From a virus (taxonomy: Duplodnaviria; Caudoviricetes), in the IMG/VR virus record IMGVR_UViG_3300020042_002832, positions 1 to 25,974 of that record: 25,974 nt of DNA. The stretch is one strand, 5' to 3'. A model generated the notes under the pieces. The model worked only from the letters and a program-made list of their open reading frames with translations, did no database searches and was not told the origin of the DNA. A program made the position numbers and the translations under genes. Each line of letters opens with the position of its first letter. Positions within the stretch are counted from its first letter, which is position 1. Positions 6,508-17,056 of this stretch are shown one piece after another.

Positions 6508-7383
6508 ATGATTAGACACTCAAAGAATGTTCACGAGCTTTCACTAGACGGCAGTGAAGTAAGGATAGCTATGCTTAGTGATTTGCACTGGGATAACCCT
6601 CACTGTGATAGAGATATGTTAAAGAGACACCTAGACTACTGCCTAAAAGAGGAGATACCTGTAATGATTAATGGTGATATGTTCTGCTTAATGCAGGGCA
6701 GGGGAGATAACAGGAGAAATAAATCTGATATTAGACCTGAGCACAATAATGCTATGTATTTAGACTCTATAGTTAACACAGCTGTGGAGTGGTTCCTACC
6801 CTATGCACATATCATTAAGCTAATAGGATACGGTAACCATGAGACAAGTATAATTAAATTTCAAGAGACTGATATCCTGCAGAGATTTGTAGATATTTTA
6901 AACTTTAAAGCAAAATCTAATATACAAGTAGGAGGATATGGTGGATGGTTAGTAGTTAAGCAAGCTTTTAGCCCTGGCAATACTACCTCTTTTACTACTA
7001 AGATCAAATACTTTCATGGATCAGGTGGTGGTGGTATAGTTACAAAAGGTGCAATCAATTTAACCAGGGCCCTAGAAACTTATGAGAACTTTGATGTTTT
7101 TACAATGGGCCATATCCATGAAAATTCATGCAGAAATGATGTGAGAGATACATTAGAAAAGCATTCTGTAACAGGTTACACACTTAAGCAAAAACAATTA
7201 CATTTAATGCTCACAGGAACTTATAAGGAAGAGTACGGTGATGGATCTTATGGATGGCATGTTGAACGTGGAGCTCCCATTAAGCCATTAGGTGGTAGGA
7301 TACTTACTATAAAATGTGGTAGAGAGACTACAGGAGATAGAAAATGTATAAAATTTATTGATAGTCACAAATTTAATTTGTAA
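6508..7383 (+). CDS. Calcineurin-like metallophosphoesterase
   Basis: SDLHWD, NGD, GNHE, FHG and GHIH metal-binding motifs. Confidence 0.85.
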   Translation: MIRHSKNVHELSLDGSEVRIAMLSDLHWDNPHCDRDMLKRHLDYCLKEEIPVMINGDMFCLMQGRGDNRRNKSDIRPEHNNAMYLDSIVNTAVEWFLPYAHIIKLIGYGNHETSIIKFQETDILQRFVDILNFKAKSNIQVGGYGGWLVVKQAFSPGNTTSFTTKIKYFHGSGGGGIVTKGAINLTRALETYENFDVFTMGHIHENSCRNDVRDTLEKHSVTGYTLKQKQLHLMLTGTYKEEYGDGSYGWHVERGAPIKPLGGRILTIKCGRETTGDRKCIKFIDSHKFNL

Positions 7384-7388
7384 GTTTG
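7358..7388 (+). promoter_or_regulatory. Host-type promoter (TTG...TAAGTTTG) for the candidate sRNA
   Basis: TTG 7358-7360, 20-nt spacer, TAAGTTTG 7381-7388. Confidence 0.55.
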
Positions 7389-7390
7389 CA

Positions 7391-7465
7391 CTAGGTTAAT
7401 ACGCCCAATGTGTTGCCTAAGCCCCTCTGCATCTTTGGTTAGTTTGGCAGGGGGGTATTTTTTTT
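7391..7465 (+). ncRNA. Candidate small antisense RNA (two hairpins, the second an intrinsic terminator with a 16-nt loop)
   Basis: Own promoter; loop segment TTTGGTTAGTTT (7434-7445) is the reverse complement of 7621-7632 and, over 11 nt, of 13995-14005. Confidence 0.5.
7421..7465 (+). terminator. Intrinsic terminator ending the lysis/phosphoesterase operon
   Basis: GCCCCTCTGC / GCAGGGGGGT stem followed by T8. Confidence 0.85.
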
Positions 7466-7571: not shown

Positions 7572-7604
7572 TTGTATACATTTAATTGTTTGTTCGTATA
7601 TTTG
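7572..7604 (+). promoter_or_regulatory. Early host-type promoter (TTG...TATATTTG)
   Basis: TATATTTG 7597-7604 matches the Bacteroidota TAnnTTTG consensus; precedes a cluster of small ORFs. Confidence 0.7.
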
Positions 7605-7632
7605 CTTCACTAACCAATTAAAACTAACCAAA

Positions 7633-7809
7633 ATGGAAACAAAACTAACAGCTGTTGAGTACCTACTCCAGCAAATTAACACCAACAAAGCCTTTACTGA
7701 CAAGCAATGGGAGAGTATCTGCGAATTAGCTCTTGCTATGGAGAGATCACAGTTAATATCTGCAGAAATTAAAGCAATTGATAACCTTTACAAAATTCAA
7801 AAGAAATGA
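7633..7809 (+). CDS. Small early hypothetical protein (58 aa, METKLTAVEYL...)
   Basis: Manually translated ORF, A-rich leader, ATGA overlap with the next ORF. Confidence 0.7.
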   Translation: METKLTAVEYLLQQINTNKAFTDKQWESICELALAMERSQLISAEIKAIDNLYKIQKK

Positions 7810-7943
7810 GAAAGAAACTAACCGACCTTATCTATTACTTTACACCCCTCACTGATGAGCATAGAGACATTTTAAGCACTGCTATGGTGTTTATATTGTT
7901 TTGGGTGAGTGTCTATACCTTAGCTTACATTACTAACCTTTAA
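7806..7943 (+). CDS. Small membrane protein (45 aa)
   Basis: Manually translated ORF with one C-terminal hydrophobic segment; ATGA coupling. Confidence 0.6.
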   Translation: MRKKLTDLIYYFTPLTDEHRDILSTAMVFILFWVSVYTLAYITNL

Positions 7944-7954
7944 AACGCTTTAAA

Positions 7955-8287
7955 ATGAACCTAGAAGATTTACAAGTAGAAAAGTACACAGCGTCCATTT
8001 GGTATGAGACCTATCACATTGAATTTATTCTTGATTTTGAGTGGTGCTTTACCTCATTTGATGAGGAAACTAATGAAACCACAGTAAGTATTTGGCTAGA
8101 TAAGGGTGAGCAGTGGTGTAACAACGTATGCCATCCCTACACACCTAATAAAGATGAGCTAAAAGAAATAATAACAGCTATTGAGGATAGCATCCTAGAA
8201 GATCCTGATAGATTTGATGTATGGCAGTGGCACATGGATAATAAAGAGTATCAGAACGAACTAAATAATGATAGAGATGATAGATAA
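7955..8287 (+). CDS. Highly acidic hypothetical early protein
   Basis: 110 aa, about 28 Asp/Glu versus about 8 Lys/Arg (manual count). Confidence 0.7.
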   Translation: MNLEDLQVEKYTASIWYETYHIEFILDFEWCFTSFDEETNETTVSIWLDKGEQWCNNVCHPYTPNKDELKEIITAIEDSILEDPDRFDVWQWHMDNKEYQNELNNDRDDR

Positions 8288-9111: not shown

Positions 9112-9375
9112 ATGAACATTTTAGAAAAAGCGAATGAAATTGTAAATCTTCGATCTGAAGAAAAAGAAAGAGAGTACGGACCGTTTACAGAAGGAATGAA
9201 AAGATCTGCACAAATTTTAAGTGGTATGACAGGAAAGGATGTAGACGCTGTATTTATGTATAAAGCTTTAATAGCTTTAAAATTGTCTAGAGAGTCTTAT
9301 AATCATAAAGAAGATAATTTATTGGATGCTATAGCATATTTAGGAAGTTTAAATAATTATTATAATGAAAAATAA
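9112..9375 (+). CDS. DUF6378-like small helical nucleotide-metabolism-associated protein
   Basis: ILEKA.EIV..R...REYG, LKLSRE...HKEDNLLDAIAY motifs. Confidence 0.65.
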   Translation: MNILEKANEIVNLRSEEKEREYGPFTEGMKRSAQILSGMTGKDVDAVFMYKALIALKLSRESYNHKEDNLLDAIAYLGSLNNYYNEK

Positions 9376-10006
9376 ATTTAAAAACGCACAAGAAGCATTT
9401 GGATATTACTATGATTTAATATGTAATAAAGGTTTAAAAAGCAATAATACACTTTCTATTTTTAATTGTGGATTTTACCTAGAAAACCCTCTAGAAAATA
9501 AAATTAATTTAGAATTTAGAAAATGGAATCATGATTATGCTGAATATGAATGGCAGTGGTATTTAATGGGCAACCCTGATGCTTTAGAAATTGCTAAAAG
9601 AGCAGCAATATGGTATAATCACATGGACGAAAATGGATTAGTTAGATCTAATTATGGTTGGCAATGGTTACGAAAAGAGCAATTAAAAAAGGTTATAAAT
9701 AAATTAGCTGAAAATAAGCATACTAGACAAGCTGTAATTTCTATATATGATGGCAAAGAAATAGATACTTATTATAAAGACACTCCGTGCACTTTGTCTA
9801 TTCATTTTCAAATTATAAATGATTTGCTTTGCATGACAGTTAATATGAGATCAAACGATTTATGGTTTGGCTTTTGCAATGATCAATATTGCTTTTCAAA
9901 ATTACAAGAAATAGTATCTAAAGAATTAAATTTAAAAATTGGATGGTACTATCATTTTACATCAAATATGCATTTATATAATAATTTTTTAAATAAAAAC
10001 AAATGA
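9365..10006 (+). CDS. Thymidylate-synthase-fold enzyme, dCMP hydroxymethylase (T4 gp42)-like
   Basis: EWQWY, SNYGW, TRQA, PCT (Cys142), MRSNDLWFGFCND with Asp at Cys+31, H.Y motif; short 213 aa. Confidence 0.8.
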   Translation: MKNKFKNAQEAFGYYYDLICNKGLKSNNTLSIFNCGFYLENPLENKINLEFRKWNHDYAEYEWQWYLMGNPDALEIAKRAAIWYNHMDENGLVRSNYGWQWLRKEQLKKVINKLAENKHTRQAVISIYDGKEIDTYYKDTPCTLSIHFQIINDLLCMTVNMRSNDLWFGFCNDQYCFSKLQEIVSKELNLKIGWYYHFTSNMHLYNNFLNKNK

Positions 10007-10308
10007 AACTAAAAAACGAATTTAATCCTATTAGAGAATGGGCAAATGATAAAGGTATTTTATCAAAAGGTGATATCAAAACCCAGTATGTAAAATTTCA
10101 AGAGGAAGCTGGAGAACTAGCAAAAGCAATTATTAATGATGATAATGATGAGATCATTGATGCAATTGGTGATTGTATAGTTGTGTTAACCTCAATAGCT
10201 TATTTTAACGGTACAAGCATAGAAGATTGTATAAATTCAGCTTATGAAGTAATAGCACAAAGGAATGGAAAAATGATTAATGGAACATTTATAAAAGAAA
10301 CAAAATGA
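10003..10308 (+). CDS. MazG-like all-alpha NTP pyrophosphohydrolase
   Basis: WA..KG, KFQEEAGELA, EIIDAIGD, AYEVI..R.G...NGTFIK. Confidence 0.85.
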   Translation: MKLKNEFNPIREWANDKGILSKGDIKTQYVKFQEEAGELAKAIINDDNDEIIDAIGDCIVVLTSIAYFNGTSIEDCINSAYEVIAQRNGKMINGTFIKETK

Positions 10309-12247: not shown

Positions 12248-13123
12248 ATGAAAACAATAAACAGCATTAGCGGAGGACAAACATCTGCATACATTGCCGC
12301 AAATTATCCTGCAGATTATAATATTTTTGCATTGGTAACAACTGATGACATTAAGTGTAAATATCCAGATGAGAAGCTTAGACAAGTTGTAAGTGATAAA
12401 ATAGGAAAGGAATTTATTGGTACTTTAGAAGAGGACACAATAATTAAAACAATTTTAGATCTAGAACAATTTATAGGAACTAAAATAGATTGGGTAAGTG
12501 GCATTTCTTTTGATGAGCAAGTAAAAATATATAAAAAAAATGGCGAGATAAAAACGCATTTACCATCTGTAATGCGAAGAACTTGCACTATTGAAATGAA
12601 AATACAACCAATTTTTGAGTTTTGGCTTAAAAACATAAAAGAAATAACAGAAACTCGTATTGGTTTTAGAGCAAATGAAACTAGAAGAGCTAACAACATG
12701 ACTGAAAGAGCAGCTTTAACAAATGGAATATTAACATTTAAAACAATCGTTGGTCAATCTAAAAATGGTAATAATAAATGGTTAGATATGCCTTATCAAA
12801 TACCAAGATTTCCTTTGATTGAGGATAACATTTACAAAGATACTATTGTTGAATATTGGAAAGACAAACCTGTTGAATTTGCATACATGAACAATTGCGT
12901 TGGTTGTTTTCATAGAAATCCAATTGTTTTAAAGCATATGTCAGATAGACATCCTAATAAATTTCAATGGTTTATTGATACAGAAATTGAAGGTATGAAA
13001 CATTTTAACGGAAATAATTGGAAACAAGGAATGACATATGAAAAAATAAAAAGCTCATATAAACAGTTTGAACTATTTGACACTGATTTTAACGAATGTG
13101 ATTCAGGATATTGCGGACTATAA
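12248..13123 (+). CDS. PAPS-reductase-like PP-loop protein with cysteine motifs
   Basis: SISGGQTS PP-loop, RTCTIEMKI, IGFRANE..RA, FPLI, NNCVGC, C-terminal CDSGYCGL. Confidence 0.75.
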   Translation: MKTINSISGGQTSAYIAANYPADYNIFALVTTDDIKCKYPDEKLRQVVSDKIGKEFIGTLEEDTIIKTILDLEQFIGTKIDWVSGISFDEQVKIYKKNGEIKTHLPSVMRRTCTIEMKIQPIFEFWLKNIKEITETRIGFRANETRRANNMTERAALTNGILTFKTIVGQSKNGNNKWLDMPYQIPRFPLIEDNIYKDTIVEYWKDKPVEFAYMNNCVGCFHRNPIVLKHMSDRHPNKFQWFIDTEIEGMKHFNGNNWKQGMTYEKIKSSYKQFELFDTDFNECDSGYCGL

Positions 13124-13942: not shown

Positions 13943-13972
13943 TTGCTATATTAAAGTAAAGTATTATATTTG
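13943..13972 (+). promoter_or_regulatory. Early host-type promoter for the recombination operon
   Basis: TTG 13943-13945, 19-nt spacer, TATATTTG 13965-13972. Confidence 0.75.
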
Positions 13973-14004
13973 TAGATAATTATTAACCAATTAAAAACTA
14001 ACCA

Positions 14005-14532
14005 ATGAAACATTTATTTAAAAGCCTAGCAGAATTTCAGCAGGAAGTTCCAACAATTCACAAAGCAACACAGGGATATGGATACACATATGCCGACTTA
14101 CCAAAGATCTTTGAAGTAATTAACCCATTGCTAAAAAAGCATGGCTTAGGATTCACTCAATTGATTAATGGCAAAGAATTAATAACAATTGTATTCCACG
14201 TTGAAAGTGGAGAAAATTTAGAAAGCAATACGTTAATACCTCAAGGGGTACAATTAAAAGGAATGAATGATTTCCAGGTTTTGGGTAGTGCAATTACTTA
14301 CTTGCGTCGTTATGCTTTAAGTAGTATTCTAGGAATAGTTAGCGATAAGGATACAGATGCAGGTGGCGAACAAGTAAAGACCGAAGCAAAAAATGAATCA
14401 AAGAAAGTCGCTATTGACGATAAAAGACTTGCTAAGGCAATTAAGGCAATAAGCGAGGGTGATTATACTATGAAAGAGCTATTAAACACATTTGACTTAA
14501 CTCCTGAACAACTTAAAAACATTGCACAATGA
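14005..14532 (+). CDS. erf: ERF-family single-strand annealing protein
   Basis: YTYADL, PLLKKHGL, GSAITYLRRYALSSILGI..D.DTDA signature. Confidence 0.9.
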   Translation: MKHLFKSLAEFQQEVPTIHKATQGYGYTYADLPKIFEVINPLLKKHGLGFTQLINGKELITIVFHVESGENLESNTLIPQGVQLKGMNDFQVLGSAITYLRRYALSSILGIVSDKDTDAGGEQVKTEAKNESKKVAIDDKRLAKAIKAISEGDYTMKELLNTFDLTPEQLKNIAQ

Positions 14533-15650: not shown

Positions 15651-15875
15651 ATGAAAGCAACTATAGAATATAACCTACCGGAAGACCAATTTGAATTTGA
15701 TTGTGCCTCAAAGTCTTTAAAAATGTTTCACGCATTAAACGAGATAAAGGTAGAGCTGAGATCCATTTGGAAATACGAGGACTTAAAGGATAATGAGTTT
15801 GAAATGGTTGAAAGAATAAGAGAAAAGTTCTTTGAAATCTTAGCCGATAACGAAATAAATCTTGACCTATGCTAA
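15651..15875 (+). CDS. Hypothetical protein
   Basis: 74 aa, MKATIEYNLPED start, tightly packed. Confidence 0.7.
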   Translation: MKATIEYNLPEDQFEFDCASKSLKMFHALNEIKVELRSIWKYEDLKDNEFEMVERIREKFFEILADNEINLDLC

Positions 15876-16087
15876 TAGATGATCATAGCCTTAGAAATTA
15901 TCTAAGAGAGGCTTTAAAAACACGAACCCGAAACCAAATAGTAAAAGAAATACAGGAAAGAGGTGAGAAGTTTCACCAATATAACATAGACAGGTTTTTG
16001 TTAGGTAAAGATGTAAGTTTAGAAACAGCAAAAAAGCTTGATAAATATATTTATAGAATTAATTTATATGATTGTAATTTATTTTAG
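15869..16087 (+). CDS. Small HTH-like protein
   Basis: HQYNIDRFLLGKDVSLETAKKL resembles an XRE/Cro HTH. Confidence 0.5.
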   Translation: MLIDDHSLRNYLREALKTRTRNQIVKEIQERGEKFHQYNIDRFLLGKDVSLETAKKLDKYIYRINLYDCNLF

Positions 16088-16348: not shown

Positions 16349-16542
16349 ACCTTGTAGCTGAAATAGAGTTACTACCTGAGAACATTAGGTACTCTAAGCA
16401 CAGCTGTGTGGCTTTAGCAAGGATTAGAACAAAGTACGATGGGCTGCAACCTAGGGAGTGCTTCTGTGCATCTGTTAGGAGGAGGATATGGTACAAAGAT
16501 TTTATGATTTGGTATGAAAAAGCTCTTAGACAACTACATTAG
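16327..16542 (+). CDS. Hypothetical protein
   Basis: ATG at 16327 (MFTETEIN...), CFC motif, overlaps neighbours. Confidence 0.6.
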   Translation: MFTETEINLVAEIELLPENIRYSKHSCVALARIRTKYDGLQPRECFCASVRRRIWYKDFMIWYEKALRQLH

Positions 16543-17056
16543 TAGGGCTTACCCTGAAGTGAGAGCTTATACGGCTTACTTTCTATCTAAGATGGGGAGC
16601 TATATAGACGCTGATACAGTCATAAACAACAGTTACCTTCATGTGCTTACTATAATTGATTATAAAGCAGATGAGGACAAAGTAAAGAGCTACCTGCTAA
16701 ACACAATCAAGTATCAAATCCTTTGGAGTACATCAAAAAGCCATAAAGACGATAGAATAACAGCCATCGAGGACAAATCAAACGATAGAATGGAAGATGA
16801 TGAACTAGCAGATAAGATAAGGGAGGACAGAACTTACTCTTTTAACAAGGGATTGATAGAGATATATAGATCAGAGATAGTGGACCAGGTACAAAGGATA
16901 GTATTTGAGGCATACATTGATAAAGGGTACATAACAAGCAGAGCACTGGCTACTTATTTTGGTATTACTCATACCTCAGCTTACTACCTGATCAAAGAAT
17001 TAAAACAAAATCTAAACAAATTGCAATATAGGTATGAAACCGAGTCAGTTTATTAG
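16514..17056 (+). CDS. Phage sigma70/ECF-like factor (putative late-gene sigma)
   Basis: Region-2-like DADTVINNSYLHV...KSYL; region-4-like QRIVFEAY...SRALATYFGITHTSAY HTH; located just before the late genes. Confidence 0.6.
   Translation: MKKLLDNYISRAYPEVRAYTAYFLSKMGSYIDADTVINNSYLHVLTIIDYKADEDKVKSYLLNTIKYQILWSTSKSHKDDRITAIEDKSNDRMEDDELADKIREDRTYSFNKGLIEIYRSEIVDQVQRIVFEAYIDKGYITSRALATYFGITHTSAYYLIKELKQNLNKLQYRYETESVY
17005..17036 (+). promoter_or_regulatory. Putative phage late promoter, copy 3
   Basis: ACA-N16-CAATATAGGTATG ahead of the terminase operon. Confidence 0.6.

Follow-up and report, generated by a model that had tools for sequence, protein, structure and literature searches.

Organisation of the locus

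The window, by which we mean the whole 25,974-base stretch of DNA analysed here, is a virus record that is ~90% complete and AT-rich, with all assigned genes on the + strand. These follow the order head and lysis genes, phosphoesterase, small genes of no known family, replication genes, NinG, ERF, exonuclease, SSB and terminase. Three of them frame the locus described below:

6508..7383, + strand: phosphoesterase-like gene, closing the lysis/late block
7633..7809, + strand: first early gene, 58 aa, no known family
14005..14532, + strand: ERF single-stranded DNA-annealing protein (PHROG hits), first gene of the ERF-exonuclease-SSB cluster

Family searches with the 58-aa first early protein gave no assignment. 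Elsewhere in the early region there are thymidylate synthase, MazG-like and PAPS-reductase-like genes (9112-10308 and 12248-13123), and a DnaD-like and helicase pair occupies the place held by a primase-like gene in two related genomes (G001 and G004). Just before the packaging genes, positions 16514-17056 encode a 180-aa protein whose counterpart by position in the relative G005 (177 aa) matches a putative HTH family, making it a candidate late activator.

Promoter boxes of the TAnnTTTG type and A-rich start regions make a Bacteroidota host likely. The same phosphoesterase occurs on three phage-sized contigs and one short contig in Flavobacteriaceae or Flavobacterium bins; however, binning is weak host evidence because other contigs with this gene sit in unrelated bins. 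No cultured relative was found, the best phosphoesterase match among deposited phages being 34.8%.

A predicted small RNA unit between late and early genes

At the end of the phosphoesterase gene lies a short unit, formed of a promoter and an intrinsic terminator and without an open reading frame, which on its sequence motifs can stand alone:

7358..7388, + strand: predicted Bacteroidota primary-sigma promoter of the RNA, with TTG (7358-7360), 20 nt, then TAAGTTTG (7381-7388), overlapping the phosphoesterase stop
7392..7419, + strand: first hairpin, variable in sequence among relatives
7393..7465, + strand: predicted small RNA of ~73 nt
7421..7465, + strand: intrinsic terminator, with a 10-pair stem (7421-7430/7447-7456), a 16-nt loop (7431-7446) and a U tract of 8 U (7458-7465)
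7430..7445, + strand: seed, comprising a loop 12-mer and adjacent anti-AUG bases

An earlier note on this DNA had described a promoter across the phosphoesterase stop, followed by a first hairpin and a terminator with a 16-nt loop. The TTG-N20-TAAGTTTG motif is present as it said, and folding, together with an alignment of 11 units, agrees with both hairpins (~7392-7419 and 7421-7430/7447-7456). Folding z-scores were -2.28 for the terminator part and only -1.47 for the whole 92-nt region. In Flavobacterium johnsoniae, transcripts start 4-5 nt after the -7 box (PMC6847099); this spacing would place the start of the predicted RNA at 7393 or 7394, with its end at 7465.

The F. johnsoniae -7 consensus, given as TAHHTTTG in the same paper (PMC6847099), disfavours G at -9, and against this consensus the window box TAAGTTTG has a G there; the TAA within it is the phosphoesterase stop codon. 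A census of -7 boxes showed that in 15/46 distinct class A units (class A being the seed class of the window) the box is TATATTTG and lies 12 nt past the stop, immediately preceding the same RNA start. A box that moves along with the RNA start argues for a real promoter belonging to the RNA, and -7-like boxes are also found in front of units placed behind another gene. A promoter of its own is thus supported for the predicted RNA. The phosphoesterase is a neighbour of the unit and not a requirement, with 14/74 distinct class A copies having no phosphoesterase C-terminal signature upstream.

A generic promoter and terminator scan missed the unit because it uses sigma-70 boxes and 3-8 nt loops. 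The Rfam search that the earlier note had proposed returned no family, with 0 gathering hits to the covariance models in the window and in four relatives of other classes (best E=1.1, to unrelated families). One RNA run contains 7% of the sequence words; its contigs cover parts of the unit but also coding stretches, and as the run may contain DNA it speaks neither for nor against transcription.

The terminator loop is complementary to two early leaders

Downstream of the terminator are two predicted early promoters, each followed by a leader with two boxes:

7572..7604, + strand: predicted early promoter 1, with TTG, 22 nt, then TATATTTG (7597-7604); it recurs before the first early gene in relatives
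7609..7635, + strand: target 1, two-box leader and start codon of the first early gene
13943..13972, + strand: predicted early promoter 2, with TTG, 19 nt, then TATATTTG (13965-13972)
13981..14007, + strand: target 2, two-box leader and start codon of ERF

The central claim of the earlier note, that the loop is antisense to both start regions, proved exact, as positions 7434-7445 are the reverse complement of 7621-7632 (12/12) and also of 13995-14005 (11/11). Allowing up to one mismatch, the loop 12-mer occurs three times in the window (the loop itself and the two targets), compared with a mean of 0.32 in shuffled sequences, 0/100 of which reach three. With accessibility included, target 1 ranks best of the 41 called gene starts at -13.1 kcal/mol and target 2 second at -12.8 kcal/mol, with the third-ranked start at only -7.9 kcal/mol. 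The loop duplex with the first early leader (-15.9 kcal/mol) extends over the AUG with one bulged base, and that with the ERF leader has an energy of -15.2 kcal/mol. Both leaders are short, each lies behind its own TATATTTG box, and both are predicted to be unstructured.

Four partial sites had also been proposed (7609-7617, 7642-7649, 7815-7823 and 7932-7938) and all are present as matches, although the last three are probably not targets: those at 7642 and 7932 lie in coding sequence and are weak (-8.4 and -9.8 kcal/mol versus -15.9 and -15.2 for the main leaders), and that at 7815 is broken in 6/12 distinct relatives. Likewise, we rejected pairing of an 8-nt match between the first hairpin and 13981-13988, which sits in a stem of a hairpin that is not conserved. 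A plain RNAduplex scan without accessibility was swamped by GC-rich chance sites; in the plain energy scan just 22/115 top sites fell at an ATG (~6 expected), with none for several leader-type RNAs.

Conservation of the unit in class A relatives

The same loop is present in the terminator at 39/40 distinct junctions with a phosphoesterase identity of at least 81% (window included), the exception being L051, and it stays constant while the first hairpin varies among the 11 aligned units. The 12-mer, in a loop predicted to be mostly unpaired, is invariant in 46 distinct class A units, which had been selected on its central 6 bases. A pattern scan recovered 98 loci representing 74 distinct class A copies, and a U tract follows in 73/74. 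Where there was enough flank, 46/53 copies have a tagged ATG within 580 nt downstream, and 0 have one on the opposite strand. In some relatives (L051, L067, L324 and L325) no unit was found at the junction.

Seed classes covary with the leaders of early genes

Distant relatives keep a promoter-terminator unit at the same junction but with other seeds. Among 315 loci, a set in which loci overlap and contigs recur, 231 have the phosphoesterase end and 187 have a terminator within 330 nt by our rule; by the same rule 32/219 phosphoesterase loci with flank have no terminator. Addition of genome-bin and ERF-anchored loci gave 196 units, which reduce to 93 distinct RNAs. Among these units, the seed is found at the 5' end, in the loop of the first hairpin (L294) or in the terminator loop. 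Examples of seed and leader pairs are CATAGCGT versus ACGCTATG in class B, TCATAATTGT versus ACAATTATGA in class F, and GTTTCATAGT versus ACTATGAAAC in class E.

Classes were set from the RNA sequence alone, and the RNA of each class was scored against the leaders of each class. The matrices cover seven seed classes, with H and A2 (2 loci each) left out, and sample at most 4-5 distinct leaders and at most 2 non-cognate RNAs per class. Pairing with the first early gene was -9.9 kcal/mol for cognate versus -6.1 kcal/mol for non-cognate combinations (p=1/5040), with the cognate RNA best in 6/7 classes. For ERF the values were -11.8 versus -5.9 kcal/mol (p=1/720; cognate best in 6/6), and for the primase-like gene, present in part of the family, -10.3 versus -5.7 kcal/mol (p=1/120; 5/5). 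Cognate preference was seen in 0/9 control genes (p 0.12-1.0) and in 0/8 of a second sample (p 0.13-1.0). The result held when the analysis was rerun with the RNA start at +5 and a new sample (first early gene 6/7, ERF 5/6). Cross-class pairing is weak, for example -2.7 and -2.0 for A leaders with B RNA. Covariation of the loop with its targets was a check named beforehand in the earlier note, and the leaders of these three genes do change with the seed, but those of the controls do not.

Seed classes correspond to lineages on the phosphoesterase tree, with 7 changes for 8 classes (52/146 proteins used), so that the number of independent events is ~7. Using tag motifs that were defined after inspection of the data, one (short) ERF subfamily has the B tag in 17/17 class B leaders, the E tag in 2/2 class E leaders and the A tag in 5/9 class A leaders, and a second (long-N) subfamily has the A tag in 13/13 class A leaders and the D/F tag in 9/9 class D and F leaders. 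Judged from these sequences, the tag goes with the RNA of the genome and not with the ancestry of the gene, and relatedness does not explain the pairing. On class F first genes the simple D/F tag was found in 0/13, and generic U/A pairing contributes in this class.

The top-ranked gene starts are promoter-proximal in 4/5 genomes. The RNAs of three more near-complete genomes likewise pair best with the starts of the first gene, which is promoter-proximal, and of ERF; in the two genomes that rank it, the primase-like gene joins them. The terminal-repeat-complete relative (G005, locus L105) carries a seed variant without a good target of its own at RNA start +5 (best -4.6). This one-base seed variant complements a one-base variant of the first-gene leader in the class B genomes L082 and L084, and these may possibly be intermediates of a seed change.

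Several further elements were observed. Six loci (L236, L237, L239, L243, L247 and L248) have units with two antisense boxes, in a free 5' part and in the loop, matching two-box leaders; the window unit retains only a trace of the 5' box, inside the first hairpin. At 7932-7957 in the window, the leader of a 110-aa gene contains an A-type box and a AAAACGCT stretch resembling the class B tag, kept in 10 distinct class A loci and possibly a relic of an earlier seed. A small GC hairpin (GGTGCG, short loop, AACGCAC) recurs 10-30 nt upstream of tagged starts of ERF or the second early gene (L088, L122, L239, L248 and others); its pattern is found in 49/338 loci and is absent from the window, and it could be a processing site or a second signal for genes without a promoter box. 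A second, long-stemmed promoter-terminator unit, which was not observed in the window, is present in L258, L288, L298, L306 and L310 (3.1-4.3 kb upstream of ERF) and in L062, L067, L324, L325, L327 and L213. Its loop looks complementary to its own 5' end, and it is possibly an attenuator or pseudoknot. In L251-L279, ERF relatives with a tagged-looking leader have instead a short promoter-terminator unit ~2 kb downstream of ERF.

Proposed mechanism

The anatomy of the unit, its complementarity, its covariation with the leaders and the choice of targets can all be read from sequence. We propose that the small RNA pairs in trans with the tagged early leaders and blocks ribosome loading, most likely as a delayed shut-off of early genes in lytic growth, a reading that we favour with some reserve. 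Since both promoters lie downstream of the terminator, the ERF and first-gene transcripts cannot contain the seed. The host primary-sigma polymerase would transcribe the RNA from the start of infection, and this short, structured RNA would accumulate, more so as the genome replicates. Behind each predicted early promoter, its seed would then pair with the tag, specific to the lineage, that marks the start codon of the first gene, occluding an A-rich initiation region with no Shine-Dalgarno (SD) sequence, and the effect may spread to downstream genes through polarity or decay. Pairing over such SD-less start regions represses Bacteroidota mRNAs in the case of GibS (PMC7366714). The earlier note had likewise read the unit as a trans-acting RNA on early leaders, and covariation and the moving -7 box largely bear this out.

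As to timing, delayed shut-off is favoured over lysogenic immunity because no integrase, HTH_3 or lysogeny gene was found: tyrosine integrase was detected in 0/4 and HTH_3 in 0/5 near-complete relatives, and there was no lysogeny gene among the 54 ORFs of G005. The remark in the earlier note that no CI repressor is visible needs qualifying for a 72-aa protein (15869-16087), which may be related to Cro/C1-type HTH_26 proteins on the weak hint of one cluster (0.91; 12% of members). Pfam and PDB searches with this protein were negative, and a protein repressor is a possibility.

Alternative explanations

The same RNA and pairing might instead serve immunity or exclusion, a role that we consider possible but rather doubtful. 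The RNA would keep a resident, non-integrated phage quiet or silence superinfecting phages with the same tag, and the seed classes would be immunity groups, as for c4 of P1 and P7, where this RNA underlies heteroimmunity (PMC12197685). Consistent with this, the targets head all detected early operons, as expected for a master repressor, cross-class pairing is weak, the seed has changed ~7 times even though two to three targets must follow each time, and the fit of the L105 seed variant to the L082/L084 leader variant looks like escape and follow-up. Against it, no integrase was found; the terminal-repeat-complete relative (54 ORFs) has no partition ATPase or resolvase and only a ParB_N domain; and all close matches among genome contigs are on contigs of at most 34 kb, the sole long contig being a 42% match. 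In its fullest form, which we offer just as tentatively, an RNA barcode would have replaced the protein repressor in small Bacteroidota phages without an integrase, with a 35-75 nt RNA reading the start-codon tag of each early operon, seed classes acting as immunity groups for superinfector silencing or non-integrated persistence, and escape and follow-up driving seed divergence.

An unlikely alternative is that the late transcript itself supplies the active RNA, as its 3' end or a fragment cleaved from there, and that the apparent promoter is minor. Silencing would in that case begin with late transcription, as a late-to-early feedback. The unit does lie directly after the last late gene, where its terminator would end the late mRNA, and the window -7 box has the disfavoured G and a TAA that is fixed by the stop codon; however, neither the TATATTTG box placed 12 nt past the stop in 15/46 class A units nor the -7-like boxes preceding units behind another gene fits this explanation.

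Both of these alternatives, like the delayed shut-off that we prefer, take the complementarity to act between RNAs, of which we are highly confident. The repeats could also act as DNA, either as operators for a phage DNA-binding protein or as inverted repeats that flip the early promoter, and we regard this as very unlikely. The tags are just downstream of promoters, the usual place of operators, early promoter 1 is flanked by the inverted pair 7434-7445 and 7621-7632, and two HTH-like proteins are encoded. In addition, pairing between RNAs would be expected to keep G-U and avoid A-C, and the 13 internal positions in RNA-leader pairs comprise 3 G-U, 2 A-C and 8 other combinations, a split that points clearly neither to RNA-specific pairing nor away from it. 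The tags are nevertheless tied to the ATG and not to the promoter: the B tag adjoins the ATG in 44/44 tagged leaders, its distance to the -7 box ranging over 17-34 nt with 11 leaders having no box, and for the A tag the distances are 0-4 nt to the ATG and 14-42 nt to the -7 box. The reversed copy, moreover, is nearly confined to the single-stranded part of a unit without an ORF. Antisense copies of the A tag fall inside the RNA unit in 24/26 cases, versus 61 sense copies (21 long loci), and those of the B tag in 16/41 cases, versus 76 sense copies. The duplexes also need bulges. Inversion of the promoter was rejected, as 64/64 loci have one orientation with the terminator intact and none is inverted; no recombinase was found, serine recombinases having been sought solely by a Pfam scan of one complete relative. 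As far as sequence comparison can tell, tag position and the confinement of antisense copies favour RNA pairing over an operator or invertible segment.

It is likewise most improbable that the RNA pairs with the leaders with an outcome other than repression, such as mRNA stabilisation or titration by the leaders of an RNA aimed at host mRNAs with similar starts. Class D, E and F seeds resemble the generic A-rich start context of Bacteroidota (PMC6847099), so host mRNAs could pair, but the tags of classes A and B are distinctive and go with phage genes, and the duplex covers the AUG of leaders predicted to be unstructured, in which there is nothing to open. Finally, a chance match of a U-rich terminator flank or loop to A-rich start regions, for which the AT-rich genome and the generic U/A pairing in class F might speak, is rejected by the shuffles, the cross-class matrix and the control genes, is refuted by cognate-specific covariation at three gene families, and can be given almost no credence.

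Comparison with known systems and implications

Known phage antisense RNAs, c4 among them, control one operon in temperate enterobacterial phages. The c4 and CI RNAs mature from a precursor and confer immunity, and P4 CI RNA derives by processing from the leader of its own target operon and causes premature termination. T4 silences its own early mRNAs post-transcriptionally at initiation regions by means of the proteins RegA and RegB; the silencing proposed here would act on early mRNAs at the same kind of region, with a pairing RNA instead of proteins.

The closest parallel in mechanism is c4 of P1 and P7, listed as Rfam RF01695, the c4 antisense RNA family (PMC2864571). This is likewise a phage RNA encoded away from its target that pairs by loop-exposed sequences around the ribosome binding site, and its specificity differs between related phages (PMC12197685). 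The window RNA correspondingly has an exposed seed complementary to the ribosome-binding region of phage mRNA, and seed and target differ together between relatives. Unlike c4, it has no Rfam covariance-model match, and where c4 acts on a temperate phage's antirepressor mRNA, the predicted targets here are genes that head two or three separate early operons. No antirepressor or immunity-operon target of a temperate element was seen: searches gave no antirepressor, integrase or HTH_3 hits, and the targets are the 58-aa gene of no known function, ERF and the primase-like gene. A cryptic antirepressor or immunity role of the 58-aa protein is possible. Like P4 CI, the RNA would take the place of a protein repressor and pair with early-operon leader sequences, but its unit ends in a terminator of its own ahead of the early promoter, one of its predicted targets is a leader 6.5 kb distant, and it shows no sequence match to CI. 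The likeness to P4 CI and P1 c4 drawn in the earlier note hence stands for the mechanism, although no integrase or antirepressor was found. From its sequence the mechanism is c4-like, but the RNA is not a member of the c4 family.

Outside phages, GibS of Bacteroides thetaiotaomicron is also a trans-encoded RNA with a single-stranded seed over the start codons of SD-less Bacteroidota mRNAs, and for GibS repression is known (PMC7366714). The conserved single-stranded seed described here is likewise predicted to pair with distant start regions. GibS is a host metabolic regulator with a long 5' seed (PMC7366714), whereas the phage unit is 35-75 nt, carries its seed in one of three places (5' end, hairpin loop or terminator loop) and addresses targets with a dedicated, co-evolving tag.

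We found no description of this RNA family in the literature, including the accessible text of PMC2864571, PMC10690425 and bioRxiv 10.64898/2026.10.21.760802. Six supplements of PMC10690425 do not contain the loop 12-mer; the remaining supplements, which probably hold alignments, may list the structure without a function. Comparative evidence strongly supports a new form of trans-acting antisense control in phages, that is, a predicted RNA-leader code under selection.

In this common group of uncultured phages, whose hosts do not use Shine-Dalgarno sequences, every early operon detected seems to be addressed by one very small RNA by way of a start-codon tag that co-evolves with it. If true, this would provide an answer to how small phages without a repressor time or restrain their early genes. 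The family also offers no fewer than seven natural pairs of RNA and leader, several of them cross-pairing weakly, and these might serve as translation switches for Bacteroidota.
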